From Eledone cirrhosa (Eukaryota), in the NCBI GenBank assembly GCA_964016885.1, contig CAXHJY010001167.1, positions 1-64,000 of the forward strand: 64,000 bases of DNA, read 5' to 3'. Below are positions 2,961-64,000 of the stretch, in pieces (position 1 is the stretch's first letter; every line of letters begins with the position of its first letter). A program made the position numbers and the translations under genes. Under the pieces are notes generated by a model. The model was not told the origin of the DNA, searched no databases, and saw nothing but the letters and a program-made list of their open reading frames with translations.

Positions 2961-3658
2961 TATGTATTTATATACAGAAAACACTCGGTTTAAATTATTA
3001 ATAGGGTAGGTTTTGTCCGCGTGTATTGACCTGACATTTTCATTATTTTCTTTAATATTACTGTTACAAAGCTATGTAATGAATGGAGGCCGAGGGGACA
3101 GTATCATAGCCGAGGAAAACTGTTGGACGAGAGAGAGTATGAGATTAATTCGTTTGTGGACATTATATGGAGAGTGGCACCAAATAGGAACAAACGAAAC
3201 CGGATAGAGAACGTCTTCGCTTCACTCTGGGCAAATAATGATTCAGAATGATGATTATGATGGTGACAGCGATGAAGATGATGATGATCATCATCATCGT
3301 CATCATCATCATGATCATGATCATGACGATGATGACAATGATGATCATGATGATGATGATATAACTATCATATACTCCCACTGCTTAGGACTCAACTCAA
3401 TAGATATCTTAATTGGCCACTGACATGAGCGGTACTTTTATTTCTGGATATTACATGTAAGTAATATATTATATAACTCCGCGATTAGATATTTCCTGCT
3501 GCTTGTTTAGATGATATACATGCCCTCTGATGAAAACCTAACTAGTCCTGAAAATTGGTAAATGGTGTTTATCATTTTTTCAGTTTACGCATGTTTGTAT
3601 GTCTATATACTAAAAATGTGTAAACTTATATACATATTTATTTAGTTTAGGTGTCTTC

Positions 3659-3709
<51 letters not shown>

Positions 3710-3940
3710 GAAACACACAGATACATGCGGACACACACATATATACATGAATGCATCCGCACCCAACTGTGAGTTAAGGGTGCTAACTTCACCGATGTTG
3801 CTCAATGAATGACTGGGACAGACCAATTCAATTTGAACTAGACTGAACCACTATCAGAGTTAAAAATACATTATGAAGAGAGAAGAAACATTTAGATATA
3901 ATTAGTAATAAAATGTATCATACCTAAACTGTTCCTAAAT

Positions 3941-4028
3941 TCCTCGACTACGTAGTTTCGTGGCATAAACAAAAACAATATATCAAAGATATAGAGTCCT
4001 TGCGAGGTCTGCCGACTTATCAAGAGGA
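3941..4028 (-). ncRNA. Type I hammerhead ribozyme, U3-A8 core variant (mirror copy)
   Basis: Near-exact reverse complement of 4698-4786. Confidence 0.8.
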
Positions 4029-4697
4029 TACCTCATTTTACTAGTCTCAAGAACGCGTCTACACGACGTGAGAAAGAATCCCAAAAGGCGGAGGGGGAGA
4101 TAGTCACGCGATATAACGGTCGAGAAACAGAGCTAAGCCTCTTATAACCACGAAGAAAATACCACGGAGGCGGAGGGGGTATTCATATCGAGGCCGTAGA
4201 AGAGGTAGTGAAGAAGGCGAGAAGTATGAGTAATGGAAGCTTTCCAGTTGTCCCCACACTTCAAAGATTGCTCGACCAGAGGGAGTTATTAATATTATTC
4301 AAATTGAATTGGTCTGTCCCAGTCATTCATTGAGCAACATCGGTGAAGTTAGCACCCTTAACTCACAGTTGGGTGCGGATGCATTCATGTATATATGTGT
4401 GTGTCCGCATGTATCTGTGTGTTTCTAAATATATTAATAACTCCCTCTGGTCGAGCAATCTTTGAAGTGTGGGGACAACTGGAAAGCTTCCATTACTCAT
4501 ACTTCTCGCCTTCTTCACTACCTCTTCTACGGCCTCGATATGAATACCCCCTCCGCCTCCGTGGTATTTTCTTCGTGGTTATAAGAGGCTTAGCTCTGTT
4601 TCTCGACCGTTATATCGCGTGACTATCTCCCCCTCCGCCTTTTGGGATTCTTTCTCACGTCGTGTAGACGCGTTCTTGAGACTAGTAAAATGAGGTA

Positions 4698-4786
4698 TCC
4701 TCTTGATAAGTCGGCAGACCTCGCAAGGACTCTATATCTTTGATATATTGTTTTTTGTTTATGCCACGAAACTACGTAGTCGAGGA
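4698..4786 (+). ncRNA. Type I hammerhead ribozyme, U3-A8 core variant, long stem II insert
   Basis: Stem I TCCTC/GAGGA; core TTGATAA; stem II GT(C)GGCA...TGCCAC; GAAA; palindromic stem III ACTACGTAGT; predicted GUC cleavage after 4781. Confidence 0.8.
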
Positions 4787-4858
4787 ATTTAGGAACAGTT
4801 TAGATATGATACATTTTATTACTAATTATATCTAAATGTTTCTTCTCTCTTCATAATG

Positions 4859-4920
<62 letters not shown>

Positions 4921-6720: not shown

Positions 6721-7006
6721 GTAAAACAAAAATATCTTTCTTCCATAATGAATATCACAAGGCCGTCATTTGGTCGATCTTGTCATAATTATTTCTACTT
6801 TTTGGCACAAGGCCATCAAATACCCAGTACATTACTGGTACGTCATAATGATCACTAAACCGTTGTTATTTCTTCAGCAATGTCAATAATATCACAATTG
6901 TTTTATTTGTTTAGTTTTGTCATAACGATTGATATATTGTTGTTGTGTCTTGTCATAATGTTTATAACAATGTTGTTGTCTTCAGTTTTGTCATAATGAA
7001 CATCAT

Positions 7007-7180
7007 AATTGTTTCTACTTTTGGCACAAGGCCAGCAATTATCCAGTGTATTACTGGTACTTTATTTTATCGACCCCGTAAGGATGAAAGGCAAAGTTAA
7101 CCTCGGCGGGATTTGAACTCAGAATGGAAAGGGCCGTAACTCTTTGCGTCAAAGCATGGCATCCGACCCTCTACCTACAA
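7007..7180 (-). mobile_element. tRNA-derived SINE, family 1
   Basis: Reverse complement of the 15338-15530 copy. Confidence 0.88.
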
Positions 7181-7443
7181 TAATGTTGTTATTTCATATA
7201 CGTGATCTACATGTATGTGTATAACTACAAATTTATATATGAGGTGGGTGCATATATATATGTGTGTGTGTGTATGTGTGTGTGTTTGACTGTATGCATA
7301 AAGCTGTGTAAGTACATTTGTCTACATCACTGCTCACATGTATGTATGTATGTAATGTATGTATGTGTGGTTATGTCATTGTCGCTTCCAGGCAGGAAAA
7401 GTTAATAGATAAACGTAATTTTGCCACACACACACACACACGA

Positions 7444-9816: not shown

Positions 9817-9905
9817 AGGGAGTGTAACGCGGAGTTACTATAGGTTCACTCGATGTTTAGGTTCACTCAGTATCGAGGTGTAGAGCTAGACAGAGTGTAA
9901 TATAA

Positions 9906-10097
9906 TAATTGTTTCTACTTTTGGCACAAGGCCAGAAATTAACCAGTACATTACTGGTACTTTATTTTATCGACCCCGTAAGAATGAAAGGCAAAGTTAA
10001 CCTCGGCGGGATTTGAACTCAGAATGGCAAGGGCCGTAACTCTATGCGTCAAAGCATGGCGTCCGATCCTCTACCGATACTGCCAATCCACCGCCCT
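9906..10097 (-). mobile_element. tRNA-derived SINE, family 1 (full length)
   Basis: Full head-to-tail match to the other copies; A/T-rich flanks. Confidence 0.9.
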
Positions 10098-10296
10098 AAT
10101 AATATAATAATATAAGGACGAATGGTTACTCCTTCATTACCTTTATTGGTTGTCATTACTACTACAGAGGTCCGACGAGCTTTTGATTCCTGAACCGGGC
10201 CAGATCGATACAGATCGAACCTTGAGCTGATCAGTAGTGAAACGCGCGTCACCAACCGATATACGTAATTAATGAGTAACCACTCGTCCTTGTATT

Positions 10297-11136: not shown

Positions 11137-11746
11137 ATGGTGGCTGCCAACTCGTTTTCGAGTACGGCCACTACTTTATATCCATGTAGGAGAACCCCTA
11201 CCGATACGCTGAACGAGTGTGACTTTTTAGTCTAACCAGCGACTTCAAAACTCTGGTACAAACACTACACTTGTGACAATTATTGACACATAGTGCTGGG
11301 CCCATGGTACCATGTGACGACAAATGCAGAGAGATCTCCAGATATAAAGCAATGCCTGTGCCGTGAAGCTTTTATAGTGAGCAAAGGCACTGCACAAAGC
11401 CAGTCCCACTCTCTTAACCAAGATGATATTTACCAAAAAGAAGAACAAGTCAACATCATTGGATATCATCAGGGTTGCAGGTGTTATATCAGAGTTTTCC
11501 TTCTCCTAGAATTCTACCTTGACTAAGGCTAAGGGGTCATCTCTCCCGGTGATTTTGGATGGCCATTGACTCTTAAGAGCTCCTTTGACCTTTGACAGGT
11601 TTTGTTTTTAGTCCTGCAGGATGTCCAAAGTCACCCTCCTCACCAAGAAACCTTGGTGGGGTTGCCAGTTTAGTCGCCAACGACCCGACCATGAGACAGG
11701 TTGTACTGGGATACATGTTACCAGTAGCACCAACTGGTGACCTGAC
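11137..11746 (-). mobile_element. Bipartite RTE-derived non-autonomous retroposon, family A (full length)
   Basis: ~610 bp, near identical to 61821-62430. Minus strand has the RTE-type 5'UTR motif CTAGGAGAAGGAAAACTCTGA, a C2H2-finger ORF end, a 3' hairpin and an (ATGT)n tail. Confidence 0.8.
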
Positions 11747-11886
11747 ACATACATATATATACATACATATATACATACATACATATATACATATATATAC
11801 ATACATACATATATATACATACATACATATATATACATACATACATATATATACATACATACATATATATACATACATACATATAT

Positions 11887-12456: not shown

Positions 12457-12974
12457 TGGTGGCTGCCAACTCGTTTTCGAGTACGGCCACTACTTTATAT
12501 CCATGTAGGAGAACCCCTACCGATGCGCTGAACGAATGTGACTTTTTAGTCCAGCCAGCGACTTGAAAACTCTGGTACAAAGACTACACTTGTGACCATT
12601 ATTGACACATAGTGCAGGGCCCATGGTACCATGTGATGACAAGTGCAGAGAGATCTCCAGATATAAAGCAATGTCTGTGATGTGAAGCTTTTATAGTGAG
12701 CAAAGGCACTGCACAAAGCCAGTCCCACTCTCTTAACCAAGATGATATTTACCAAAAAGAAGAACAAGTCAACATCATTGGATACCATCAGGGTTGCAGG
12801 TGTTATATCAGAGTTTTCCTTCTCCTAGAATTCTGCCTTGACAAAGGCTAAGGGGTCATCTCTCCCAGTGATTTTGGATGGCTATTGACTCTTAAGAGCT
12901 CCCTTGCCCTTTGACAGGTTTTGTTTTTAGTCCTGCAGGATGTCCAAAGTCACCCTCCTCACCAAGAAACCTTG
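12456..12974 (-). mobile_element. Family A RTE-derived element, 5'-truncated copy
   Basis: Near identical to 11137-11654; lacks the 5'-terminal ~90 nt. Confidence 0.8.
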
Positions 12975-14430
<1,456 letters not shown>

Positions 14431-14569
14431 CATACATATATACATCCATACATATATCCAACCATCCATCCATCCATCCATACATACATACATACATACA
14501 TTGCATACATACATACATACATACATACATACATACATACATACATACATACATACATACATACATACA

Positions 14570-15138
14570 TGATGGCTGCCCCCTCGTTATCGAGTATAGA
14601 CATTGCACGATATACCATTATTAATAATTATTAATTAATTCTATCGTGCAATGCCTGTGCGTGAAGATATTTTTTGAAGTGAGGAAAGACTGTGCACTGA
14701 GCCAATCCCACTCTCTGAGCGACAGTAGCTATAACCCGAAAAGCTAGGAGATACGGGTCCTTCAATCCCAGTGGTTTGATCGCTCGATCGGGTGTCCAGC
14801 CCGACTATTTCTATGTCCCCGCGCATATACATACACATGCACCCATGTAGGACAAAAAACAAAACTTGACAAAGGGCGGAAGGACTCATAAGAGTCAACG
14901 GCCATCAAAAAGTATGTAAATATGTATATACACATGTGCATGTGTATGTATATGTATATGTGTATATACATGGGTGCATGTGTATGTATATGCGGGGGGA
15001 CATAGAAATAGTCTTAATCACCCTTCATTTTGGACAAGTAAACTTGGTGGGATTGCCGGTTTAATCGCCGACGACCCGATGATGCGACAGGTTGTACTGG
15101 GGTTACATGTTACCAGTAGCACTCAAGAGTGACCCGAC
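14570..15138 (-). mobile_element. Family B RTE-derived element with both termini and an internal inversion
   Basis: Termini homologous to family A; 47-bp inverted repeat at 14803-14849/14967-15013; flanked by (CATA)n. Confidence 0.75.
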
Positions 15139-15337
15139 ATACATACATACATGCACACATAGTGGGAAGCCTACTTGGGTCCGAGTACGGTCACTTCTTA
15201 GAACGAAGAAAAAAACACACATACACATACATCAATTCATAAATGCACACTCACGTAATACACATACACGCACATACACTACATGCAACTCTACCCCAAA
15301 TATAAATATATATTTAATGTTGAATGGCATTATATAA

Positions 15338-15530
15338 AGGGCGGTGGATTGGCAGTTTCGGTAGAGGGTCGGACGCCATGCTTTGACGCATAGAGTTACG
15401 ACCCTTGCCATTCTGAGTTCAAACACCACCGAGGTTAACTTTGCCTTTCATCCTTACGGGGTCGATAAAATAAAGTACCAGTAATGCAGTGGGATAATTG
15501 CTGGCCTTGTGCCAAAAGTAGAAACAATTA
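15338..15530 (+). mobile_element. tRNA-derived SINE, family 1 (full length)
   Basis: GGCGGTGGATTGGCAG head, GAGTTCAAAC B-box, conserved core and tail. Confidence 0.9.
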
Positions 15531-15623
15531 TATACATTGTAGTAATGTAAAATAAAAGAATAAAGGAAGTACATACATATAAACATATATACATATATGT
15601 ATGTATGAATATATGTATGTATG

Positions 15624-19702: not shown

Positions 19703-20454
19703 ATGGTAATGGTAGTGTTGGCTATTGTACTATTGTTGATGATAGTGCTGGAGAATGAATGCAGTAGTAGTGGTGTAGGTTGTTATGATATATGTTATGG
19801 CGAGGGATGTGTGTAAAGGTGATGGTGGTGGTGGCGGTGGTGGTTGTGGCGGGGGTGGTGGCGATGACGTTGTGGTGAGGTAGGGTGGAGGTGGAGTTTA
19901 TGATGGTGACTGAGGAGCTAGTTGCAGCATGGTTTCTATTGTTTAGACGTCTGGTCAGTCCCGGCTTTGAACTGGTTGGCTGGTAGGTTTATAAGTAGGC
20001 AACCTCAGCTCTGATATATAGTTGAAGGACCATATATATATGTATACATATGTATGATTTAACAGTAGCAGTAACATAGCGTTTTCATAATGAAGGCGCA
20101 TATAACCAACATACAAGTCTCACTATGAGTATCTCAAACTCTGATCAACTACCTATTCAGTGACGTTAATTTTCTAACAATTCATCCTTACGGGGTCGAT
20201 AAAATAAAGTACCAGTAATGCACTGGTGGATTGCTGGCCTTGTGCCTAAAGTAGAAACAGTTAATTTTCTAACAATTCGCTAGTTTGGGGAAATTGTGCT
20301 TCTTTTTAGGGAATCGATCTGGAAACACTGGTAAAAGATCGCATGGTTCCAATTTGGCTGTTATTTCTAGCAGATCTGATAACCCTAGTAGTGGTTCTAT
20401 TGTTTGCTCGGGTTTGGCTATTATTTCGAGCAGATCCCTAATAAACATTATAAA

Positions 20455-20628
20455 GTATCGGTAGAGGGTCGGACGCCATGCTTTCCAGCATAGTTACGTC
20501 CCTTTACGATCTGAGTTCAAATCCCGCCGAGGTTAACTTTGCCTTTCATCCTTACGGGGTCGATAAAATAAAGTACCAGTAATGCACTGGGTTTTTGCTG
20601 GCCTTGTGCCTAAAGTAGAAACAATTAT
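20455..20628 (+). mobile_element. tRNA-derived SINE, family 1 (a 3' fragment also lies at 20183-20262)
   Basis: Match to the shared family sequence. Confidence 0.88.
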
Positions 20629-21399
20629 AACCCTAATAAAGATTTTCTATCAGCTGCGATTTGGTAGCTATTTCTAGCAAGTATAGCAACCCTTCTACAA
20701 TGCCCCTGTTGCTCGGATTTTGTTGCTATATCGAGTGATCACGTGGAGACTCCCAATATGGTTTGTCGTCCAATCTATTTCTGTAGGTTCTGATGTACCA
20801 TAGGAAATGCGGGCGAGGAGGGGGACTCCATCGGAGTGTGACATTACTGATCCGTCTGCACTTATCTCTGCTGGTGTGTATTCCTGTGTTTGATGTTAAT
20901 GGAGTTATCAATGTTGACGACCATTTCTCTCTGACTCCCCATTCTCTCTCACACCCCTCCCCCGTCTCTCTCACACCCACCCATCCCACACATCCTCCAC
21001 TCTCTCTCTTTATTTAAAGTTAGTGGGAGTAATACAGTTCTTAGGATGTTGTAGTAGTAGTTAATTGTTACTTAACCTTATCCTTCCAATGCATTCCATT
21101 CGGTATAACGGTATAACACTGCCATTTTGTGTATCAGGACCTACATTGCACAAAGCATCTTTTTTTATTAACAAGTTAAAGTATCTTTTGGAGGTGAGTT
21201 GGCTACTATTTCTAACGGGTAGAACAACCGCGTAGAAGCTCTGGAGTCGTTACAAATGTGGCGGGGCTGTTTACATAATGATTATAGTCAGAAGGGAAGG
21301 ATTAGTGTTGTTAGTATGGTTTTGCAGTAATATTGTGAAATGGGTAGTGAAACCCAGTGCCTAGATACTTAGCGCCACAAGCTAGCTATACAATATAAC

Positions 21400-24372: not shown

Positions 24373-24527
24373 ACCGGTAGAAATCGTTGGAACATCCTGT
24401 GTCACTCGGTTCGTAGCGTACTGCAACTATTCTAAATAATTTGTTATATATTTGGAGCTGTTTGTGTGAGTAATTATATATATATATATATTGTTATACT
24501 TGGAGGGGGTAGGGGTCATATTGTTGT

Positions 24528-24722
24528 AATAATTGTTTCTACTTTTGGCACAAGGCCAGCAAATTACCCAGTACATTACTGGTACTTTATTTTATCGACC
24601 CCGTAAGGATGAAAGGCAAAGTTGACCTCGGCGGGATTTGAACTCAGAATGGAAAGGGCCGTAATTATATGCGTCAAAGCATGACGCCCGACCCTCTACC
24701 GATACTGCCAATTCACCGCCCT
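24528..24722 (-). mobile_element. tRNA-derived SINE, family 1 (full length)
   Basis: Match to the shared family sequence. Confidence 0.9.
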
Positions 24723-25032
24723 ATTATTGCCAGAAATAATAACAGAACACACTCACTGTTTGGTTGGTTTTCGCTTCTTTATCTTTTATATCTCCACAGT
24801 TAATTCATTTGGTCAAAAATACAGATGTAATATATATATATATATAGTCTATTAAAGTTCTTTCGTTGCACATCTGCAACATCATCAGTGGTACTATTAT
24901 ATATATGCGCACATGCATGCATACACACACACATATTATATATGTATATATATATGCGCACATGCATGCATACATACACACACATATATTATATATGTAT
25001 ATATATGCGCACATGCATGCACACACACACAC

Positions 25033-25336: not shown

Positions 25337-25397
25337 TATTTTATTATATATATTTCAAGGGTACCAAAATTTTGGCACGCTCTCATCAGATAAAATA
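25337..25397 (-). ncRNA. Type I hammerhead ribozyme, canonical core
   Basis: Minus strand reads TATTTTAT-CTGATGA-GAG C GTGCCAAA AT TTTGGTAC C CTT-GAAA-TATATA-TA^-ATAAAATA: 8-bp stem I, ~11-bp stem II, palindromic stem III. Confidence 0.85.
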
Positions 25398-30691: not shown

Positions 30692-31800
30692 GGCGTGTGG
30701 CTCACTGGTTAGGGTGCATGGCTCACAAGCGTAGAGTTTTGAGTTTGATTTCCAAACCGGGTGACACATAGTTTCCTTGAGCAAACTATTTTATTTCATG
30801 TTGACCTAGTCTACTGAGCAAAATACTTTATTCCACGTTGACCTAGTCTACTGAGCAAAATACTTTATTCCACGTTGACCTAGTCTATTGAGCAAAATAC
30901 TTTATTTCACGTTGACCTAGTCTACTGAGCAAAATACTTTATTTCATGTTGACCTAGTCTACTGAGCAAAATACTTTATTCCACGTTGACCTAGTCTACT
31001 GAGCAAAATACTTTATTCCACGTTGACCTAGTCTACTGAGCAAAATACTTTATTCCACGTTGACCTAGTCTACTGAGCAAAATACTTTATTCCACGTTGA
31101 CCTAGTCTACTGAGCAAAATACTTTATTCCACGTTGACCTAGTCTACTGAGCAAAATACTTTATTCCACGTTGACCTAGTCTACTGAGCAAACTACTTTA
31201 TTCCACGTTGACCTAGTCTACTGAGCAAAATACTTTATTTCACGTTGACCTAGTCTACTGAGCAAAATACTTTATTCCACGTTGACCTAGTCTACTGAGC
31301 AAAATACTTTATTCCACGTTGACCTAGTCTATTGAGCAAAATACTTTATTTCACGTTGACCTAGACTATTGAGCAAAATACTTTATTTCACGTTGACCTA
31401 GTCTACTGAGCAAAATACTTTATTCCACGTTGACCTAGTCTACTGAGCAAAATACTTTATTCCACGTTGACCTAGTCTACTGAGCAAAATACTTTATTCC
31501 ACGTTGACCTAGTCTACTGAGCAAAATACTTTATTCCACGTTGACCTAGTCTACTGAGCAAAATACTTTATTCCACGTTGACCTAGTCTACTGAGCAAAA
31601 TACTTTATTTCACGTTGCTCTAGAAAAAAAATGAATTACGAAGACACTGGTGCCAAGCTATATCGACTTTGGGTTTTTTCTTGGCCAAATTCGGTGGCGC
31701 AGAGAGGAGAATTTTGTATACATAGGTAACTGATGGTCGTCAACAAAACCCCTTCTCTAGATATGTTTCCGGGAATAGCAACCCTATAGTTAGGCAATCA
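30692..31800 (+). mobile_element. SINE family 2 copy carrying an internal tandem expansion
   Basis: Head ggcgtgtggctcactggttagggtg...gagtttgatt; body resumes after the array with gttgctc...ggtgccaagctatatcg, as in 2661-2960. Confidence 0.75.
30778..31617 (+). repeat. 37-bp minisatellite, ~22.7 copies (TGAGCAAAATACTTTATTCCACGTTGACCTAGTCTAC)
   Basis: Units start at 30778, 30815, ... 31592; head-to-tail with no spacers. Confidence 0.97.
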
Positions 31801-32054
31801 TGGGTGCAAAGTCATTAAAAGTAAGGTTCTGAAGCTTTTTGGTCACAAAAAACGTTCACAAAAAGGTCATTCTAAAACATGTATGGAGGGTACGATTCGG
31901 AGTAAATGAAATAAGGGTAGACCACCGAGGCACAGGCGAGATAATGTCTATAAATCGTCTCGTCTAAATTTATATTGACACAAAATAGGAAACTTTGGGA
32001 AGAACTAAGTTATGTTAATACACAATCTGCCATATGTAGAAGACACCTAATGAT

Positions 32055-32240
32055 AATTGTTTCTACTTTTGGCACACGGCCAGCAATTACCCAGTGCATT
32101 ACTGGTACTTTATTTTATCGACCCCGTAAGGATGAAAGGCAAAGTTAACCTCGACGGGATTTGAACTCAGACCGTAAAGGGACGTAACTATGCTGGAAAG
32201 CATGGCGTCCGACCCTCTACCGATACTGCCAATTCACCGA
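32055..32240 (-). mobile_element. tRNA-derived SINE, family 1
   Basis: Match to the shared family sequence. Confidence 0.9.
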
Positions 32241-34254: not shown

Positions 34255-34630
34255 GTATGCATATGTATGTATATGCGCGGGGGACATAGAAATAATTGGA
34301 CTGGATAACCGATCACGTGGTTAAAGCACTGGGAGTGAAGGACCCCTAGCCTCTGTCAGGGCATTCTTCTAGGAGAAGGCAACTCAGGAAACTGGGATAA
34401 CTCCGACATAAAACCTGCGGCTCAGTAGTTACCGATGATGTTGATCTTTTCTTCTTTTCGGGTTATAGCTACTGTCGCTCAGAGAGTGGGATTGGCTCAG
34501 TGCACAGTCTTTCCTCACTTTAAAAATAATTTTCACGCACAGGCATTGCACGATAGCATTATTTGATAACTATTAATAATGTTATATCGTGCAATGGCCA
34601 TACTCGATAACGAGGGGGCAGCCATCATCT
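34255..34630 (+). mobile_element. Family B RTE-derived element (5'-truncated); terminal 3' hairpin repeated at 34765-34800
   Basis: Contains the CTAGGAGAAGGCAACTC motif, the shared body, the 3' hairpin and an (ATGT)n tail. Confidence 0.75.
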
Positions 34631-34800
34631 TGTATGTATGTATGTATGTATGTATGTATGTATGTTTTTTTTTTATTTATTTATTTATTATTATTATTAT
34701 TATTTTTATTTATTTATTTTTTATTTTATTTTATTTTATTTTTATTTATTTTTTTTTTTTTCTTGTGCAATGGCCATACTCGATAACGAGGGGGCAGCCG

Positions 34801-34888
34801 CCCAAAATGTATATACACTTTAATTACCTATACAGGCAATATTTATTAAAATGCTGTTGAAGTGTGTATACATTTTTTGGACACCCTG

Positions 34889-43344: not shown

Positions 43345-44790
43345 AGTGAAAAATGGAACGGGAACAAAACAGAGAGGCAGTACGAACAAGGTTTATTAGT
43401 TTCACGCTCTTGAGAGGGGGGGCGTTTCGGGCATAAGCCCTTCTTCAGGCGAAAAGTGTGTGAGAAGAGAGTTCCGAGGGTGTGTAGGGGAGTGGTGGAC
43501 AGACAATTAGAAAGGGGGGGACGGTGGAAGGGGTACAAATAAAAATAAATATAAAAAAAATAAAAATAAAAATAAACATGAAGATAAACAAGTGGTGGAA
43601 GGGTGTGGGGCGTGTAGGGGTTGTGGCGGGTGGAGTGGGGAGAGGGAGGCGGGGTGTCCGAGCGGGGAGGGCTGAAGGTGGTGTATGTGTGTAGGTGTAC
43701 GTGTGTGTGTGTGTGTGTGTATGTGAATGTGAGAGTTGGGGGAAGAACGAGGTTCCATGTTCAGGAAAAGGTGTGCGTGTGGCGTGGGGTGTAGGTCGGT
43801 GTGTGTGTGCGCGTGTGGATAGGGAGGGGTCAGAGGGGTGGGGGAGGGGGAGAGGATTCCGGAGGCTGAGTGTGTATATATGTGGGGGTACGCACATTTA
43901 TACGTATTGTGGAGTATGTGGCGTGGTTGGAAAAAAAATGTTTGTGAGTGTATGTCCGTGGGTAAGTTCCTAAGGTAGTTCCGTAGAGGGTGTGGTGAGT
44001 TGCCGGATATTTTCCTTGTGATGGAGTTGATGGTGGGAACGATGGCCGATGTGTGTAATCCGTAGTTGTGTTGGTCGGAAGAGGGGAGTGTGGGGTTCGC
44101 GCACAACAGGAAGTAGTCAGAGTGTCAAGGCAGAAGGAGGGTAGAGGAGAATGACAGGTGGAGAGGGCTGTGTGTCTGTGTGTGCGGAGAAGTGGTCAGA
44201 GGGTCAAGGCATAGCAGCAGTAGAGGAGAATGGCAGGTGGAGAAAGTCGGTGTCAGTGTGTGCGGAGGTGCGGTGGACAGGGGGAGAGGATGGTTAGGTG
44301 TGAAAGATGGAGTGGGGAGGGGGTCGTGCGGGGGGAGGGTGTGTGTATTTGTAGAGGTGTTAGTGGGATGTCTGTGTGTGTGAGAACGGGTGTGGGTGGA
44401 GCGAGAAGAGGGAGAGAAAAGTGTGGGGGACGGTGGAGGGAGTGTAGTGTACTGGTGTGTGTGTGCGTGTTTGGATGAGTGTGTGTGGTGAAGGGGGTGT
44501 TAGTGGGTGTTAGTATACTGGTGGTAGGGTGTGTAGAGTGGGTGGTGTAAGTGGGTGTGGGTGGGTGTGTGTGTTCGTGTGCGTGGGGTTGGTGGGATGT
44601 TACTGGTATTAGTTGTGGGGTGGTGGGAGTGGATGTGTGTGTGAGGGTCAGTGGTGGTAGTAGAGTGTGTGGATAGTGTGAGTGCGTGTATATATGTACC
44701 GGTGGGCGTGTGCGTGATAGGGGGAGGGGGCAGGGGGGAAGGGGGAAATATGTTAGTATTGTTAGTTGGGGGAGGGTTGTCGGGGTGGAT
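43345..44790 (-). mobile_element. CA-rich hammerhead-bearing Penelope-like non-autonomous element, long copy (cleavage triplet mutated, 43421-43448)
   Basis: 43345-43870 is homologous to 45593-46106; CTGAAGAAGGGCTTATGCCCGAAACGCC on the minus strand; TA tracts at both ends. Confidence 0.7.
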
Positions 44791-44944
44791 ATATATATAA
44801 TATAGAAATGGCTTCTATAGGACTAGAACTGTTTCATTTGGGAGAAATGAATATATATATATATACTATATATAGAGTTATAAACTCAAACAGTCTTTTA
44901 CAATTAATTAGCTCAAAGAAAGAAGTATTTCTGAGCCGTGAAAT

Positions 44945-45578
44945 ACAAGTTAATATAAATTAATATATGATAAACACTAATATAATCATACAAGTGTTTG
45001 TATTACAAATGACCAAGTTAGCTAGATTGAAAAATACTAATTAGATTAATACAGTTTGCCTGTCTCGATTTAAAATAATAAATCAATAAAAACAAACCCA
45101 TATTGGCAATAGCCGTGATACCTGGACAAATTTAAATTTCAAAACCCAAATAAGTTTCTCAACGATAATTGAAGAAGTGAAAAATTCCATTTCCTGTGGT
45201 CATCAGCAGGTATCCAGAAAAATTGGTATGTTTCACCTCGAAATACTTAGGAGGACTAGTAGTCAAGTGTTAACGCACATGGTTTTTCAGCTCCTAGCTA
45301 TCCCAGCTATCCTTCAATTATCGTTGAGAAACTTATTTGGGTTTTGAAATTTAAATTTGTCTACGGAACAGGTTTGGGTTTTGAAATTTAAATTTGTCCA
45401 GGTATCACGGCTATTGCCAATATGGGTTTGTTTTTATTGATTTATTATTTTAAATCGAGACAGGCAAACTGTATTAATCTAATTAGTATTTTTCAATCTA
45501 GCTAACTTGGTCATTTGCAATACAAACACTTGTATGATTATATTAGTGTTTATCATATATTAATTTATATTAACTTGT
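44945..45578. repeat. Near-perfect inverted repeat, ~230-bp arms, ~140-bp spacer
   Basis: 44945-45174 is the reverse complement of 45312-45578; the right arm has a ~26-bp internal duplication. Confidence 0.93.
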
Positions 45579-45592
45579 TTATATATATATAT

Positions 45593-46103
45593 AGTAAAAA
45601 ATTGAACGGGAACAAAACAGAGAGGCAGTACGAACAAAGGTTTATTAGTTTCACGCTCTTGAGAGTGGGGTGGTGGTGGGGAACGACGTTTCGGGCATAA
45701 GCCCTTCTTCAGGTGAAAAGTGTGTGGGAAGAGAGTTCCAAGGATGTGTAGGGGAGTGGTGGAGAGACATATAGAAAAAAGGGGTGAGAGGAAACGGTAC
45801 AAATGAGATTAAATATAAAAGCATAATAAAAATAAAAATAAACATGAAGTAAAACAAGTGGGGGAAGGGTGTGGGGCGTGTAGGAGTGGTGGCGGGTGGA
45901 GTGGGGAGAGGGAGGCGGGGTGTCCGAGCGGGGAGGGCTGAAGGTGGTGTGTGTGTAGGTGTACGTGTGTGTGTGTATGTGAAAGTAAGAGTTGGGGGAA
46001 GAACGGGGTTGCATGTTCAGGAAAAGGTGTGTGTGGGGTGAGGTGTAGGTCGGTGTGTGTGTGCGTGTGTGGATGGGGAGGGGGGGGGGGGGATTCCGGA
46101 GGC

Positions 46104-52309: not shown

Positions 52310-54106
52310 ATGGATGCCATTTCAACCTCGCACACTGTCGTGAGTGCCACGTCCACTAAGAAAAGTGGTGGAGGGAAGGTAGGAGTACAAAGCTTGCAGC
52401 CTTCCCCCATCGCATTATCGAAAAACGTTGAAAATATTTAAACCAGGAAACCAGATCCGGTAAATAATACCAGCACCAACAAGAACAATGACAATAAGAC
52501 CACAACCAACAACTGCAACAATAGCAACACCAAGGAAAACATGAACAATATTACCAACAGTGACAACAACAACAGCAACAAAAAAGACAACAACACCAAA
52601 ACAACGTTCGCACAGACTGTAAAAAAAAACGAACTATACACGCCAATTGACATAACAAATGCTAAACAACTACTACAAGACGCAAAACAATTGGTGACTT
52701 TTGGCGAAAACGGTGCTTTTAGCATCAATTCTCCACAGGAATTACGTAGAGAGGCTGTCCTGAAAACTGTGGTTTTCAGGACAATATCGAACGAAACAAG
52801 AAAACCAGCTCAATTATCACAAAATGAGATTGAGTTGGTTCTAAAAGATGCAATGAAGGACATAACCTTCATACAAAAATGAAAACTGTTTGGTAGCATT
52901 TCGATGCTAATGAACAAGCAGTCAACAGCACAAAAATACTCGGTATCACCCATTGTGTCCCCCCGCTTCACCTTTTTCCCCACATAGAGGGGAAAAAGGA
53001 CACAAAGAATAAAATAATGAGTATCACACCAAATATGAATATTTGGTGGATACTATGTGGAATCATTGACTTTGATGAAGACAGGATAATTTCAATAGGA
53101 AAGTCCTCCGGAGGTGTATTTGGTGGGACCAGCGTAGAAGTTCTGGTGCAAATGAGCCCAGAACGAATAGCGAATAGTCCACAACGCGTGCCTCTGGACG
53201 GGCTAACTTATATAAACATTTCAGTGGGGGCAAGGCGGCCGTCATGTTACCACTGCTTAAGCAGGGGTCACCTGAGGGCTGCCTGTCCTCAATTAACGAG
53301 TAAAAAAAAAAGGCTCTTCTGCCAACCCCGAACACAACAACACCACCACCACCACCACCACCACAACAACAACAACAACAACAACCACAACAACACGGAA
53401 AAATAACAACACAAAACACTGTTCCACCCAACCCCTCCCCACCTAAAACAAATACAAAAGCAACCACAACAAAACCCCTAAATATACCCCTCCCCAACAA
53501 CACGTATCAACGTCACCCAGTGACGACGAGGAAGAACCCTTTCAACAGGTGAAAAGGAAAAAAAAGGCACCACATTAACAAAAATGCTACAAACACACAA
53601 CCACCAGCCCAAACAGAACAAACATCACAAACAAATAAACCCACCTCTCCCAAAACATTACACATACTACAAAACGCAAACACGCACAAGAACAACAAAC
53701 AAAAACAAACACAACACAACAAAAACTCTATACATACATTAACAAGAACAATAAAACGTTGATGAAAGCAATAGAAAATAACCCTTCGGTGGAAACCGAA
53801 GAGATCACTTTCACCTACGCAGCGAACAAACCGCACCTAATGATGATTAGGGTCCCAACGGAAACCTATGTAACTTTGAAAAACAACCATCCAATGCATG
53901 GGGAGACCAACTGGACCAAACCACTTAACCACGTCCTATTGAGATGTTTCCCCACCCCTACACCAGACACCCACACCCCACCAAACACCCTAATCCCACC
54001 ACACACTGATGTCCTCACCCCACCACAGACCACCACCCCACCAAACAACCCTTCCAACACCCCCATGGAAATTGTGCAGCCTGGTCCCCAGGAGACGAAG
54101 AGGTAA
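52310..54106 (+). pseudogene. Tx1-like ORF1 (gag-like; zinc knuckle CYHCLSRGHLRAAC), broken by stops and frameshifts
   Basis: ORF pieces 52541-52882, 53017-53406 and 53759-54106; an upstream in-frame ATG at 52310 is followed by a stop near 52439. Confidence 0.75.
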
Positions 54107-54147
54107 GTAATTTCCTTTCCTCTTCCTTTTAACTCTTCAGCACCAAC

Positions 54148-57100
54148 ATGGCCAATATAAGAGTTGGATGTGTGAATTCACGCAGCCTGGGGATGTCCTG
54201 GAAACAGGGCAAACTCTTAAATGACCTCATGTCGCACAGAGTGGATGTAATGGTTATTTGCGAGTCCAAGATCAGCAGCGAGCGCCAACTGGCCCCCATC
54301 TTCGACGACTTTGAGATCTACGCATCTCTCTGTCAACCGAGGGGTGGGGTTGTCGTTCTGCTGCGAAAATACCTGGGTCTTGCTACACAGAAAGTACACC
54401 TGGACCCGAAGAATCGACTGGTAGATTTAGACGTCGGCAGTAGTGAAGGTGGCGCTTTCAGGCTGGTGGCAGCGTATGCCCCATCTGGGAGTCCGCGACC
54501 GGACTTCTTCCGACGCCTGGAGAATTTCCTGGGAACGTCTCGCTCCTTGCTTTTAGTGGGGGACTGGAATGGTATCCTGGATGCACGTTGGGACTATGTA
54601 GGGGCATGTCCCGATAAAGGGGGTTGTAACAGCCTCAAACGATTAATCGGCCGATTTGATCTGGCCGATAGATATCGACTAGATTTTCCGACTGTGCCAC
54701 TGTGGGCGTGGACTTATCGCACCGGATCATCTAGGTCGTACCTAGATAGGTTCCTAGTTAGAAATAAGGATTGGGACATATTAAGCTGTCCACGAATGTT
54801 CATGGTTGACTATTCGGATCACAAGTTGGTGACCGGAGTGGTCAACCTTGATAGAACTCATAGACAGAGACCCGGTTACTGGAAGCTAAACTTGTCTTTA
54901 CCGACAAACAAAGCTTACAGTAAGCGGATTAGCACACTAGTTAAGCAGCGGTTGACGGGGGCAATTGTCAACATCAGGTGGTGGGGCTCTCTCAAGAGAG
55001 GAATTAGAATAGAATCGATAGGTTTTAGTCAGGAATTAGTATCAGATAGGAATAGAACTGAAAGGGAATTAATAGATAGAGTAGAAGAGGCGATTAGGAG
55101 TGACAACGTGGCTGGCGTCAAAAATTGCTCTAGACCAGTTCTTTGATGCAAAGCACGAGGGCTGCGTTGTCAGGAGTAAAATACGTGCTCTGGATAACGA
55201 GGGAGCCAAAGCCGTTAGCTGGGCCCGAGTGACAGAGGCAAAAAGTGGAAACAAGTCTACGATTCGGTCTTTGAAGGACCAGGATTGATGCGTGATCCTT
55301 GAAACTGAGCGGATGAGCGCGGCCTTTCAACGGCGCTTTGCACGACTGTTCGGGAGGGGCGGCGGGCCGGGTGAGGCCATGGATTTCGGTCCATACTTCG
55401 ACGATCTGGTGCGACTCTCGGACGGGGAGGCGAAGTCCTGCGAGAGGCCGATTTCAGCCGCTGAAATAGGGGAAGCGCTGAGCCAATGCGGCAACCGCAA
55501 ATCTCCGGGTCTCGATGGTCTACCATACGAACTTTATGTAGCGATGCCGGGCTTGTTCTCCGGTCTCCTCGAGGCGGTCTACTGCAACTGGCAACAGAAC
55601 GGGAGAATTCCCAGTTCTGTGACCAAGGGCGTAGTCACGCTGGTGAGGAAGGACGAGAACAGGGGGGGGGGGGGCATAGATAACTTCAGGCCCATAACAC
55701 TGTTAAACACAGAGTTAAAGATTTTGGCCAAGGTGTTAGCGAAGAGGTTGGCGCTTGTCGTCGGGAACCTGGTGGGAGAAGCGCAGACATGCGCAATCCC
55801 GTACAGGTCCATACACGACAACCTCCACCTCATGCGATACATCGTAGAGAGGGTAGGGAACGAACTCGGCTTTGGTGGGTCCCTGATCAACTTGGATCAA
55901 TCTAAGGCGTTCGATAGAGTTGACCATCGGTACCTGGATGCGGTGCTCGCGGCGGCAGGCTTCGGACCCGTTTTCAGGGGCTGGATTGCTGCAATGCACA
56001 GAAGCAACACCTGCTCGAGGGTCAAGGTGAACGGCTACCTCTCGGAGCCGTTCCAAATCACGTGATCCATCCGACAGAGATGCCCTCTCTCCTCCCTCCT
56101 GTATGTGCTGGCTCTCGAGCCACTACTGCGGAAGCTGGAGCTGTTGCAGGGCATCCCCTTGGAACCGGGATTGCGGAAAGCGGTGTCGGCCTACGCCGAT
56201 GACGTGACAGTAATGGTGTCGTGCGCCTCGGAAATCGGGCAGATCGGCACCTTACTGGAGGAATATGAAAGGTTCACAGGAGCCAAGCCGAACCGGGACA
56301 AGTCCGTCGGTTTGCATCTCGGGACGTGGAGGTGCAAACCGCTGCCCTCCGACGGATGCTGGACGGAGGGACCGGTAAAGCTGCTCGGGTTCTGGTTCGG
56401 ACCGGGCCTCCAGGTGGAGAAAAACTGGGACGAGGTAACGGGCAAGGTGTTTGCACTTTCCCAGAAGTGGGCCGAGTGCAAACTATCCCTGAAAGGTCGA
56501 GCGGAGGTGGCGAACGCTTATATAGCGTCCGTCATTTACTACCGCTTGACCGTCGTGCCTTGCCCAGAGAAAACACTCGCCAAAATGGAGCGCGCGCTCT
56601 TCCGATTTCTTTGGAAGAAGCGGGCTCCTTTGGTGAGAAGATCCATCTGCTGTCAACACCCTTCGAACGGAGGGCTGGGGTTGCCGTGGCTGACGATGCG
56701 TAGACACGCATTAAGGCTACGGCACCTCCAGGTATTCCTTACCGGTCTGCCGGTGTGGACCCTGTTTGTGAGGCGAGCCTTTCCGAGACTCGTCTCACTC
56801 ACGGAGCTGCAATTCTGGGTCAAGCAAAGACCGAGAAAAGTGGGCGACTGGCACATTGAATGTGCCCAGGCGCTCACGGCCCTCTGGCAAGCGGATCCGG
56901 CAATCAGTGGAGACTCAACCTCAACATTCTATAGAGGGTTGGTGCGCAGTAAGTGCGACGACGCTCTCGGACAGGCTCTGGGCATGGAGGAAGATGAGCT
57001 GGCCAGTCTGTTCGGTAGGACGTTTGGCCCGGGACCGATGGACAACTTCCAAAAGTCCCTGACTTGGCAATGTTACCGAGGAGCTCTACCCGTTCGGGAC

Positions 57101-57565
57101 AAGCTCTACAGACACGGGCGCCCGGGTAGGGACCCCTCAAAGAAGATCTGTCCGAGATGCGTGCGTGACGAGGAAACCGTCGCACACGCATTCGTACACT
57201 GCCCGGGCGTTGCTGACCTGTGGGGCTATGTGGAACGACTACTGTGGTGGGTGGGACCAATCCGGTTGACCACCGAGAACATTGTCACGATCAAACCGCC
57301 TCCCCCTTTCAAAAACGAAGGAGAGGCGGTTTTCCTCTGTGTGATAGCTATGGCGAAAGAAGTTGTATGGTGGACAAGGTTGAAAGGGCTCATGTCAGAC
57401 ACCTTTCTCTCCGGCCAACAACTGGTCTTTTTTTTCAAGTACCACTTTAGAAGAAGGATCAGAATGGAGAGAGAGGTGCTCTACCCCAGCAAGTTTTATG
57501 AAAGGTGGGTGAAAGTAGCGAGAATGGCCCGAGTGAATGGGCCTTCTCTCTATATCAGCCTTTAG
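54148..57565 (+). pseudogene. Tx1-like ORF2: AP endonuclease + reverse transcriptase + C-terminal zinc finger
   Basis: APE motifs (N-S-R-S-L, E, YAP, GDWN, SYLD, SDH); RT motifs (KSPGLDG, NFRPITLLN, LDQSKAFDRVDH, YADD); CPRC..ETVAHAFVHC. Frameshift near 55120 and stops near 55286 and 56063. Confidence 0.95.
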
Positions 57566-58836: not shown

Positions 58837-58889
<53 letters not shown>

Positions 58890-58892
<3 letters not shown>

Positions 58893-59645
58893 AATATAGA
58901 TTCAGCGAGAATCGCATTTCGGCGGGGAGAAGAGGCGAAACGAAACGCAAAAATCAGATATGATACTGGCAAGCGCTCGATAGTTATAAAACCAGAGCTT
59001 AACAATATGTTAAGAGGCCATACAAAACTGAAATAGTGGTCAAGAAAGCGTCAACCACCTAAGTAAGCCAAAAGGCAAATCAAGCAGGTCAAAACAAAAT
59101 AAAATAAATGATAAAGAAAACACAGACCCGGACCTGTTGGAATTGATGTTAAAATCCAAATGCAGGGTTTCTATGACACCTAAATGAAGATACTGTCTGC
59201 TAAAAATATAAGCTTTAGGTATAATGATCGAACAAGGAATATCACGTTATCAACAGGTATTTTGCTCCGTACCAAATTTGTGAGTGACACAGAGGCACGT
59301 AAAAGCACGTGTGGAATTCACAAGAGGAAAGAACCCCAGGTTTTGGCAAATGAATTCACTATGTGTATACCATGCAAAAAATTGCATAAATAGCACAAAT
59401 CGAATAAGCTCTCAACCAGGTGGATTTTAAAATAAACTTATACAATTAACCTGTCAATAAAAATTATTAACAAGTTAATTGAAGACACGGGAAATTAATG
59501 CAAATATAGATTCAGCGAGAATCGCATTTTGGCGGGTAGAAAAGGCGAAACGAAACGCAAAAGTCAGATATGATACTGGCAAGCGCTCGATAGTTAAAAA
59601 TACAGAGCTAAACAATATGTAAAGAGGCCATACAAAACAGAATAG
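58890..59645. repeat. ~150-bp direct repeat (58890-59038 / 59500-59646) with a diverged third copy at 60282-60400
   Basis: caaatatagattcagcgagaatcgcattt...ggcaagcgctcgata...agagct..caatatgt..gaggccatacaaaac. Confidence 0.9.
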
Positions 59646-60105
59646 TATTATTAATATAAAGCATTGTGAGATATGAAATATATGACTAATAAGTTTCAGA
59701 AAGCTGGTTCAAAGCGGTAGATATTAATAAAGGGAAAAGGATGACAGGTAAAATAAAACAAAGTAATAATTTTAACTAGTATATTTCAACATAACATTCC
59801 AGGTCTACAACCTCTTTTCAAATGTAAAAATGAAAACAATTCAAAACAAAATGGACGATCGCTTTCGTTTTTCCATATGAAATATTATTTTGAAATATAG
59901 TAGGTAAAAAGAAAAAAAGGCATTTCTTTTATTTTGTTTTATTTGTTATCCATTATATATTTCTACCACATTATATCGACTTCCAAAAATTTATTAATCA
60001 TTTATTACACACACTCACATACGCATATATATATATATTCTGAGTTTCAGAAGATCCTGTAAAAGGGCCGAAATATATGTTCTACAGATTTATATATATA
60101 TACTT

Positions 60106-60214: not shown

Positions 60215-60275
<61 letters not shown>

Positions 60276-60496
60276 TAAATTAGCGAGAATCGTTTTCAGC
60301 TCAGGAATTAATGAAAATCAACGTCCGATATGCGTGGCAAGCGCTCGATGAATCATATGAATCAGAGCTACAACATACGTTAAGGGCCAAACACACTGTG
60401 ATGATGGTTAAACATATCATCCGCACAGCCAAAATCAAAACGACCAAGTAATTCGGGTCAAACAATAAAAATATATGTGTTGATACTTTCCCGTTG

Positions 60497-61820
<1,324 letters not shown>

Positions 61821-61822
<2 letters not shown>

Positions 61823-62430
61823 GGTGGCTGCCAACTCGTTTTCGAGTACGGCCACTACTTTATATCCATGTAGGAGAACCCCTACCGATGTGCTGAACGA
61901 GTGTGACTTTTTAGTCCAGCCAGCGACTTGAAAACTCTGGTACAAACACTACACTTGTGACAATTACTGACACATAGTGCTGGGCCCATGGTACCATGTG
62001 ACGACAAGTGCAGAGAGATCTCCAGATATAAAGCAATGCCTGTGCCGTGAAGCTTTTATAGTGAGCAAAGGCACTGCACAAAGCCAGTCCCACTCTCTTA
62101 ACCAAGATGATATTTACCAAAAAGAAGAACAAGTCAACATCATTGGATACCATCAGGGTTGCAGGTGTTATATCAGAGTTTTCCTTCTCCTAGAATTCTG
62201 CCTTGACAAAGGCTAAGGGGTCATCTCTCCCGGTGATTTTGGATGGCCATTGACTCTTAAGAGCTCCTTTGCCCTTTGACAGGTTTTGTTTTTAGTCCTG
62301 CAGGATGTCCAAAGTCACCCGCCTCACCAAGAAACCTTGGTGGGGTTGCCAGTTTAGTCGCCAACGACCCGACCATGGGACAGGTTGTACTGGGATACAT
62401 GTTACCAGTAGCACCAACTGGTGACCTGAC
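61821..62430 (-). mobile_element. Family A RTE-derived element, full length
   Basis: Near identical to 11137-11746; intact C2H2 remnant [23 protein letters not shown] at 61882-61953. Confidence 0.82.
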
Positions 62431-62442
62431 ATAATATACTCA

Positions 62443-62480
62443 CCTTTTGAAAAGCAGAAGAACTGCGAAACCGGTAAAGG
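62443..62480 (+). ncRNA. Minimal type I hammerhead ribozyme, U3-A8 variant
   Basis: CCTT-TTGAAAA-GCAG AAGAA CTGC-GAAA-CCGG-TA^-AAGG; palindromic ACCGGT stem III. Confidence 0.82.
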
Positions 62481-62628
62481 AACCAAATAAATATATATAT
62501 TTAAAAAAAAAATAAGACTTCAGTTGCATTTTCGATTTCATCCCTTTTTCTTTATACTTCCACTCGTGTAGGACACCTCGGTTATTTTTCATTTTGTAAA
62601 AAAAACCTCACTTTCTAATATATATATG

Positions 62629-62660
<32 letters not shown>

Positions 62661-62664
62661 CATG

Positions 62665-62732
<68 letters not shown>

Positions 62733-62750
62733 CATGTATATATATATATT

Positions 62751-62801
<51 letters not shown>

Positions 62802-62802
62802 G

Positions 62803-62860
<58 letters not shown>

Positions 62861-62869
62861 CATATATAT

Positions 62870-62932
<63 letters not shown>

Positions 62933-63023
62933 CATATATATATACATATATATATATATATACATATATATATACATATATACATATATATATACATATA
63001 TATATACATATATATATATATAC

Positions 63024-63054
<31 letters not shown>

Positions 63055-63083
63055 GATATACATATATATATATATATATATAC

Positions 63084-63168
<85 letters not shown>

Positions 63169-63169
63169 C

Positions 63170-63220
<51 letters not shown>

Positions 63221-63238
63221 AATATATATATATACATG

Positions 63239-63306
<68 letters not shown>

Positions 63307-63310
63307 CATG

Positions 63311-63342
<32 letters not shown>

Positions 63343-63490
63343 CATATATATATTAGAAAGTGAGGTTTTTTTTACAAAATGAAAAATAACCGAGGTGTCC
63401 TACACGAGTGGAAGTATAAAGAAAAAGGGATGAAATCGAAAATGCAACTGAAGTCTTATTTTTTTTAAAAATATATATATTTATTTGGTT

Positions 63491-63528
63491 CCTTTACCGG
63501 TTTCGCAGTTCTTCTGCTTTTCAAAAGG
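63491..63528 (-). ncRNA. Minimal type I hammerhead ribozyme, U3-A8 variant (mirror copy)
   Basis: Exact reverse complement of 62443-62480. Confidence 0.82.
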
Positions 63529-63582
63529 TGAGTTGAGATGGAGGGTCTGTGGTTTTTCTCACATCTGGTTGGTCTCTAAATG

Positions 63583-64000
<418 letters not shown>

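Follow-up and report, generated by a model that had tools for sequence, protein, structure and literature searches.

How does a short repeat element come to lie twice at one locus, in opposite orientations, together with the microsatellite beside it? The question is raised by a palindrome near the end of the window (the whole 64,000-nt stretch that was analyzed), which is AT-rich, microsatellite-laden eukaryotic DNA. It bears on a wider one, since PMC8557442 calls open both how Penelope-like elements (PLEs) make inverted structures and why they favor microsatellites.

By sequence comparison within the window, we found that 62438-62841 and the reverse complement of 63130-63533 agree at 402 of 404 positions. 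Both mismatches fall at 62503-62504, the border of a T/A homopolymer, where T3A10 stands opposite T5A8. Each 404-bp arm consists of 180 bp of unique sequence (62438-62617 in the left arm) and 224 bp of interrupted (TA)n, and the arms enclose 288 bp (62842-63129) that are not mirrored. Within the mirrored (TA)n, all 15 alternating stretches are equal in length and every interruption is mirrored. The arms are tail-to-tail, so that both hammerhead motifs and both element 3' ends face the center. The initial annotation had described a palindrome with mirrored microsatellite interruptions, and we found that this palindrome is indeed present in the assembly. Its further proposal, that the element and the flanking microsatellite were copied as one unit, was also borne out, with about 224 bp of TA sequence added. 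The features of the locus are as follows.

61159-61821 (+): upstream paralogous block of the interrupted TA tract, an older direct duplication; the start at 61159 is tentative, as it is set by one shared AA interruption
61822-62432 (+): high-copy interspersed repeat of 610 bp that separates the two tract copies and forms the left flank of the insertion; 97 to 98% identical copies at 11138-11747 and 12457-12974
62433-62438 (+): outer junction, a short TA remnant with an AA interruption and 1 to 2 nt of possible microhomology
62438-62841 (+): left arm, the probable young inverted copy of 63130-63533, with 180 bp of a PLE-type 3' end and 224 bp of interrupted (TA)n in reversed polarity (G-type; 11 G, 2 C)
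62443-62480 (+): minimal type I hammerhead motif from a pattern scan, with a U3-A8 core and palindromic stem III; cleavage is predicted after 62476
62557-62617 (+): optional 61-nt "tail"-like 3' extension; other family copies stop at 62556 and continue into TA
62819-62842 (strand not assigned): inner junction, a 24-nt pure alternating TA run and putative fold-back priming site; source run, 63130-63152
62842-63129 (+): unmirrored center of native interrupted TA, the putative fold-back loop; direct match to 61217-61508
63130-63353 (+): right-arm microsatellite, C-type, probably native and the template of the copy
63354-63583 (-): right-arm element, a 230-bp 5'-truncated PLE-type 3' end with a hammerhead motif at 63528-63491 and 50 bases more than the left arm
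63585-64000 (+): downstream TA tract, a member of the same pattern family; from 63912, it holds a third, partial copy of the center's pattern

The arm element and its hammerhead motif

We aligned contigs from 4 of 23 listed runs (X15, X16, X18, and X19) to 62300-62624; X15 and X16 represent one sample, and the sequenced sample may be an individual other than the assembly source. Summed word depth for the arm element was about 1e6 in X15/X16. Because summed depths were near 1e6 in these runs, we consider both the arm element and the 610-bp repeat to be very high-copy. Loose contig ends before 62438 (in 18, 22, 3, and 1 contigs) match 63534-63583. That stretch is therefore element sequence, and truncation has gone further in the left arm. 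Within the window, these 50 bp are all that we have of the element upstream of the 62438 equivalent, and two exact-motif scans of metagenome contigs returned 0 loci, which yielded neither a parent element nor a linked coding part (RT plus GIY-YIG). The family is thus dispersed, high-copy, and 5' truncated, as is a PLE pseudo-LTR fragment. By hammerhead class, copy number, and truncation, we call the arm element a putative PLE-type end.

At the 3' side, loose ends behind 62556 were seen in 22, 26, 1, and 2 contigs of X15, X16, X19, and X18, respectively. The family accordingly has two 3' ends, 62556 and 62617, which both run into TA and lie 61 nt apart; the published PLE tail is 30 to 40 bp. 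Both palindrome arms carry the full tail and the flank, unlike these two usual ends. The arms also share minority family alleles at 62520 (where about 69% of X15/X16 depth differs) and at 62560 (where 86 to 90% differs), and they are therefore copies of one another. At no position did almost the entire family depth disagree with the left arm, and the right-arm variant at the mismatch is absent from the family variants listed at ≥2%. In run X16, the letters at one contig joint (62487 to 62471) resemble the element's upstream extension, reversed, which hints at head-to-head inversions of this family elsewhere.

Both arms match a hammerhead pattern with a 4-bp stem I, a U3-A8 core, a 4-bp stem II, and a palindromic stem III. 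The initial annotation had called these ribozymes intact. The pattern is present in both arms as it said, but "intact" goes too far: Rfam gave 0 hits at the gathering score in the whole window, and the MFE fold, although it includes stems I and II, is no better than those of shuffled sequences (z = -0.93). For these reasons, we treat the hammerhead as a predicted motif match. At E ≤ 10 over 61800-63600, there was no hammerhead among 61 Rfam matches, which were mostly AU-repeat miRNA models far below their thresholds. Strict scans of the window found only the two arms and one other motif (25395-25339). We recognized the remaining hammerhead-like motifs by eye, and most of their folds fall short of significance (z = -0.40, -1.26, -2.35, and -1.40). 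U3-A8 minimal hammerheads and opposite-strand pairs of them have been described in PLE ends (PMC4209133), and minimal hammerheads of this sort are reported to be weak alone (PMC4209133 and PMC11167929).

As annotated initially, the left arm begins 5 nt before hammerhead stem I. Such a start could be read as a sign of ribozyme action, but we rejected the arm start as a ribozyme cut: predicted cleavage, at 62476/62477, lies 39 nt inside the arm. The copy was therefore not ended by self-cleavage, and the hammerheads were probably passengers of the copying event.

We compared the locus with known structures. Like the Cercyon-type PLE hammerheads (PMC4209133), the motifs here combine a U3-A8 core, a helix I of 4 to 5 bp, and a minimal palindromic helix III, and they occur at high copy and in opposite-strand pairs. 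In contrast, helix II is 4 bp here, compared with 7 to 8 bp in the S. mansoni families, and the two motifs lie about 1,050 bp apart, compared with 100 to 700 bp in published opposite-strand pairs (PMC4209133). PLE inverted pseudo-LTRs (PMC8557442 and PMC3846280) likewise have two opposed 5'-truncated ends, one of them shorter, with a hammerhead in the end, an optional 3' tail (shorter than the putative one here), and a TA target. However, those of endonuclease-positive PLEs are usually head-to-head with their 3' ends outward (PMC8557442 and PMC3846280), and the palindrome here is instead tail-to-tail, which is the rarer PLE geometry. Nor do its arms end at their own 3' termini with a tail on one side only, as in the canonical form; both arms have the tail and 224 bp of flanking microsatellite, around a 288-bp host spacer. 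Non-LTR retrozymes (bioRxiv 10.64898/2026.07.22.740005) are also short noncoding hammerhead sequences derived from PLE ends, but they form direct tandem repeats. We found no direct tandem units bounded by hammerheads, and the window contains two inverted copies only. Published work already covers inverted PLE ends, U3-A8 motifs, TA targeting, and fold-back insertions. Among the published cases that we found, none was a tail-to-tail PLE pair with mirrored microsatellite in the flank, although subscription papers and supplementary PLE alignments may hold some; the available sections of PMC9977147 and PMC13282606 contain nothing on such a structure.

Direction and relative age of copying

Interrupted TA tracts serve as barcodes. 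They give the direction, extent, and relative age of copying, all of which pure repeats hide. We found that the center matches the upstream block in exact runs of 152 bp (62929/61304, with 11 interruptions, the G marker included) and 102 bp (62828/61202). The token alignment of the two scored 29, against 7.3 ± 1.6 for the null, and 0 of 500 shuffles scored as high. These runs and this score support the claim that the center repeats the upstream interruption pattern, including its rare marker. The match does not end where it was first placed, since it runs on to about 63307: the center and the right-arm TA lie on one diagonal (1625 to 1629) with 61217-61680. The downstream tract also matches the upstream block, in exact runs of 135, 109, and 86 bp, the last being the third copy at 63912.

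By eye, we counted about 8 events that separate the center and right-arm TA from the upstream block, and 0 between the mirrored tracts. It follows that the tract was duplicated directly before the inversion arose. The same counts do not support a reading in which the center was copied from upstream in the same event.

Polarity gives the direction of copying. On the plus strand, six other local tract segments (W0, X0, Z0, the center, the right-arm TA, and the downstream tract) are C-type, with 32, 20, 16, 19, 11, and 20 C versus 0 to 2 G, and the left-arm TA alone is G-type. The switch from G-type to C-type falls inside the TA run of the inner junction. By polarity, then, copying ran from the right arm to the left.

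We also asked whether the right-arm TA itself is native. Of its 11 C interruptions, 8 fall on diagonals 1627/1629 with 61526-61680 (P of about 0.001; 20,000 shuffles); the band was picked after inspection of the diagonals, so the test is partly post hoc. These diagonals tied for best among the 598 with any hit when C positions only were used. Continuation of the upstream match through the right-arm TA gave a P value of 0.0097 in an anchored alignment (DP) and 0.05 in an unanchored one. An exact-token test of the right-arm TA against the upstream tract found no match (P = 0.94); additional CATG and TAAAT marks break up the spacings on which it depends. The upstream diagonal thus appears to run on through the right-arm TA, which argues that the right arm is native and that the left arm arose recently, as an inverted copy made locally. 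The center and downstream tract without both arms align to the upstream block about equally well (P of about 0.01), and for this reason nativeness of the right-arm TA is favored but not proven. The 3' transduction from elsewhere that was first proposed fits poorly with a right-arm TA that looks native by the C-band and anchored tests.

Origin of the inverted copy

We propose that DNA repair produced the left arm recently and locally, as a fold-back (snap-back) inverted duplication, and we give this reading a probability of about one in two. In this model, an interrupted (TA)n tract would have been duplicated directly around the 610-bp repeat and then diverged. A young 5'-truncated PLE end (63354-63583, minus strand) would have inserted into the second tract copy. 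The tract would then have broken near 62842, and the self-complementary bottom-strand (TA)n 3' end would have folded back over 288 nt to prime within the TA run 63130-63152. From there, a polymerase would have read through 224 nt of TA and 180 nt of element sequence before its release 5 nt past the hammerhead. Finally, the free end would have been joined to the left flank by 1 to 2 nt of microhomology, possibly with the loss of some 52 bp. The size of this loss assumes that the AA at 62434-62435 is the paralog of the AA at 61160, a single marker.

One fold-back and one end-joining reproduce the whole structure, with an insert that is the reverse complement of 63130-63533 (402/404). Consistently with this model, the insert is an inverted copy of adjacent DNA 288 bp away, and we found a 24-nt TA run at the inner junction and 1 to 2 nt of homology at most at the outer one. 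Fold-back priming at broken DNA ends is established (PMC7999016 and PMC11724301). As in the insertions described there, one end would be primed within the strand beside a break, the other would be captured by end-joining, and the product is an inverted copy of nearby DNA. The published insertions followed an induced break, whereas the setting here is a germline or an assembly. Those in PMC11724301 are also mostly 5 to 34 bp, and an insert of 404 bp with a 288-nt loop, primed in (TA)n, is long for such events. Two further observations count against a purely DNA-level origin: the copy runs toward the element's 5' end, as a cDNA would, and two other palindromes in the window, described below, have hammerhead-like, PLE-type arms. 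The latter point to PLE machinery as the maker of inversions here.

We also considered a PLE reverse transcriptase that would have acted in place, which we regard as possible but unlikely. Read-through sense RNA from the right arm would run into (UA)n; this RNA would either prime itself, leaving a 288-nt loop, or serve as the template for a primer end at a bottom-strand nick within that TA tract; and a 404-nt, 5'-truncated cDNA would be joined to the left flank. Self-priming on a sense template is predicted to give tail-to-tail repeats (PMC3846280). In PMC11167929, a purified PLE protein nicked and extended both strands of AT-rich DNA and accepted RNA that had not been cleaved, but in vitro initiation occurred at fixed sites in the element RNA without target homology, not 224 nt into a flank. 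The copying direction and the 1- to 2-nt junction fit 5' truncation, the right arm looks young by its family comparison, and both of the other palindromes carry templated inserts. On the other hand, a fragment of 230 bp cannot encode an enzyme and possibly lacks the region that the protein binds, and the route requires reinsertion at the element's own locus. If a PLE reverse transcriptase did copy read-through RNA into its own locus, priming in self-complementary (UA)n/(TA)n, it would give a tail-to-tail product and add an inverted microsatellite each time, and the interruptions would barcode PLE-driven microsatellite growth and palindrome formation in TA-rich animal genomes. Sequence alone cannot separate DNA repair from reverse transcription in place, and a single locus settles neither. 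The most likely reading is still an ordinary repair scar that includes a common element.

The initial annotation named an assembly artifact as its main alternative. We consider an artifact of library, amplification, or assembly (a fold-back chimera or a misresolved TA repeat) to be rather improbable but still a live alternative. The mirrored TA run lengths are identical, and slippage would erode such identity quickly. In addition, none of the 32 contig pieces listed (of more than 19,716) bridges 62437/62438, where a bridging piece is expected to be short between high-copy repeats; with so few pieces, and a sample that may come from another individual, this absence weighs neither way. However, an artifact would need two switches: different native flanks bound the mirror, and a 288-bp native spacer is enclosed. 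The arms also differ at 2 positions, with a right-arm variant not found among the listed family variants; the outer junction falls mid-element with a clean end; and the window contains two further palindromes, both of the documented head-to-head type.

It is quite improbable that both arms were inserted with their microsatellite from a distant donor, through two nicks 288 bp apart and one RNA, or that the center was copied from upstream in the same event. The right-arm TA has no exact run of at least 4 interruptions in common with the upstream tract and carries private CATG and TAAAT marks, and the near-equal alignment of the center plus downstream tract without the arms also leaves room for a donor. 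Nevertheless, the upstream diagonal runs on through the right-arm TA, whose polarity is the local one; same-event copying would leave unexplained a center that differs from its upstream copy beside a mirror that does not. The C-only spacing and diagonal tests speak against the two-nick model with foreign mirrored TA and do not support microsatellite import from a distant donor. Two independent insertions at the ends of the TA tract, later homogenized by gene conversion between the arms, would suit a family that is extremely abundant and ends in TA, but are highly improbable given the minority alleles common to both arms and the 224 bp of mirrored interruptions, and a copying step would still be needed.

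Other palindromes and repeats in the window

A head-to-head palindrome has arms at 3866-4295 and 4431-4861 that differ by 1 mismatch and 1 indel. Its center, 4298-4434, is an exact inverted copy of the flanking 3701-3837, and 3701-4861 clearly exemplifies a template jump to DNA close by, as judged from the window. By eye, we noted a U3-A8 hammerhead-like motif with a long stem II near 4700-4787. Another head-to-head palindrome has 206-bp arms (44945-45150 and 45373-45578) with 1 mismatch; a 50-bp inverted copy of 45125-45174 lies at 45312-45361, and a hammerhead-like motif was read by eye on the minus strand near 45120-45212. In both, the 3' ends point outward, as documented for PLEs (PMC8557442). 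The two cases show that PLE-type ends commonly undergo templated inversion here. Close to the second palindrome, the minus-strand sequences 43349-44800 and 45597-46100 represent two related element ends, 86% identical over 181 bp; both contain hammerhead-like cores and run out in TA tracts. Solo hammerhead-like motifs adjoin TA tracts at 3500-3665, 25339-25395, and 60050-60090; the second came from the scan, and the first and last were read by eye.

The three copies of the 610-bp repeat are 96 to 98% identical, and each sits in a TA/TACA microsatellite; diverged relatives occur at 2286-2656, 14561-15141, and 34258-34815. On either side of the copy at 61822 lies some 600 bp of interrupted TA, duplicated in direct orientation and since diverged. 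A short repeat end is present in three copies, at 58888-59037 and 59501-59646 (92% identical to each other) and at 60270-60400, two of which abut TA tracts. An old inverted repeat (59665-59801/59878-60019) is 67% identical.

We also found a broken LINE-type element at 52442-57565, which may have L1/Tx1 affinity. Of 8 proteins scanned, 3 gave Pfam hits (Exo_endo_phos, RVT_1, and zf-RVT), and these fall in three frames. A tandem array at 30777-31624 has a unit of about 74 bp, 95 to 97% identical. A SINE-sized family (about 200 bp) is represented by at least 6 copies, 89 to 97% identical, at 6999-7187, 9899-10108, 15329-15536, 20444-20631, 24524-24727, and 32050-32239.
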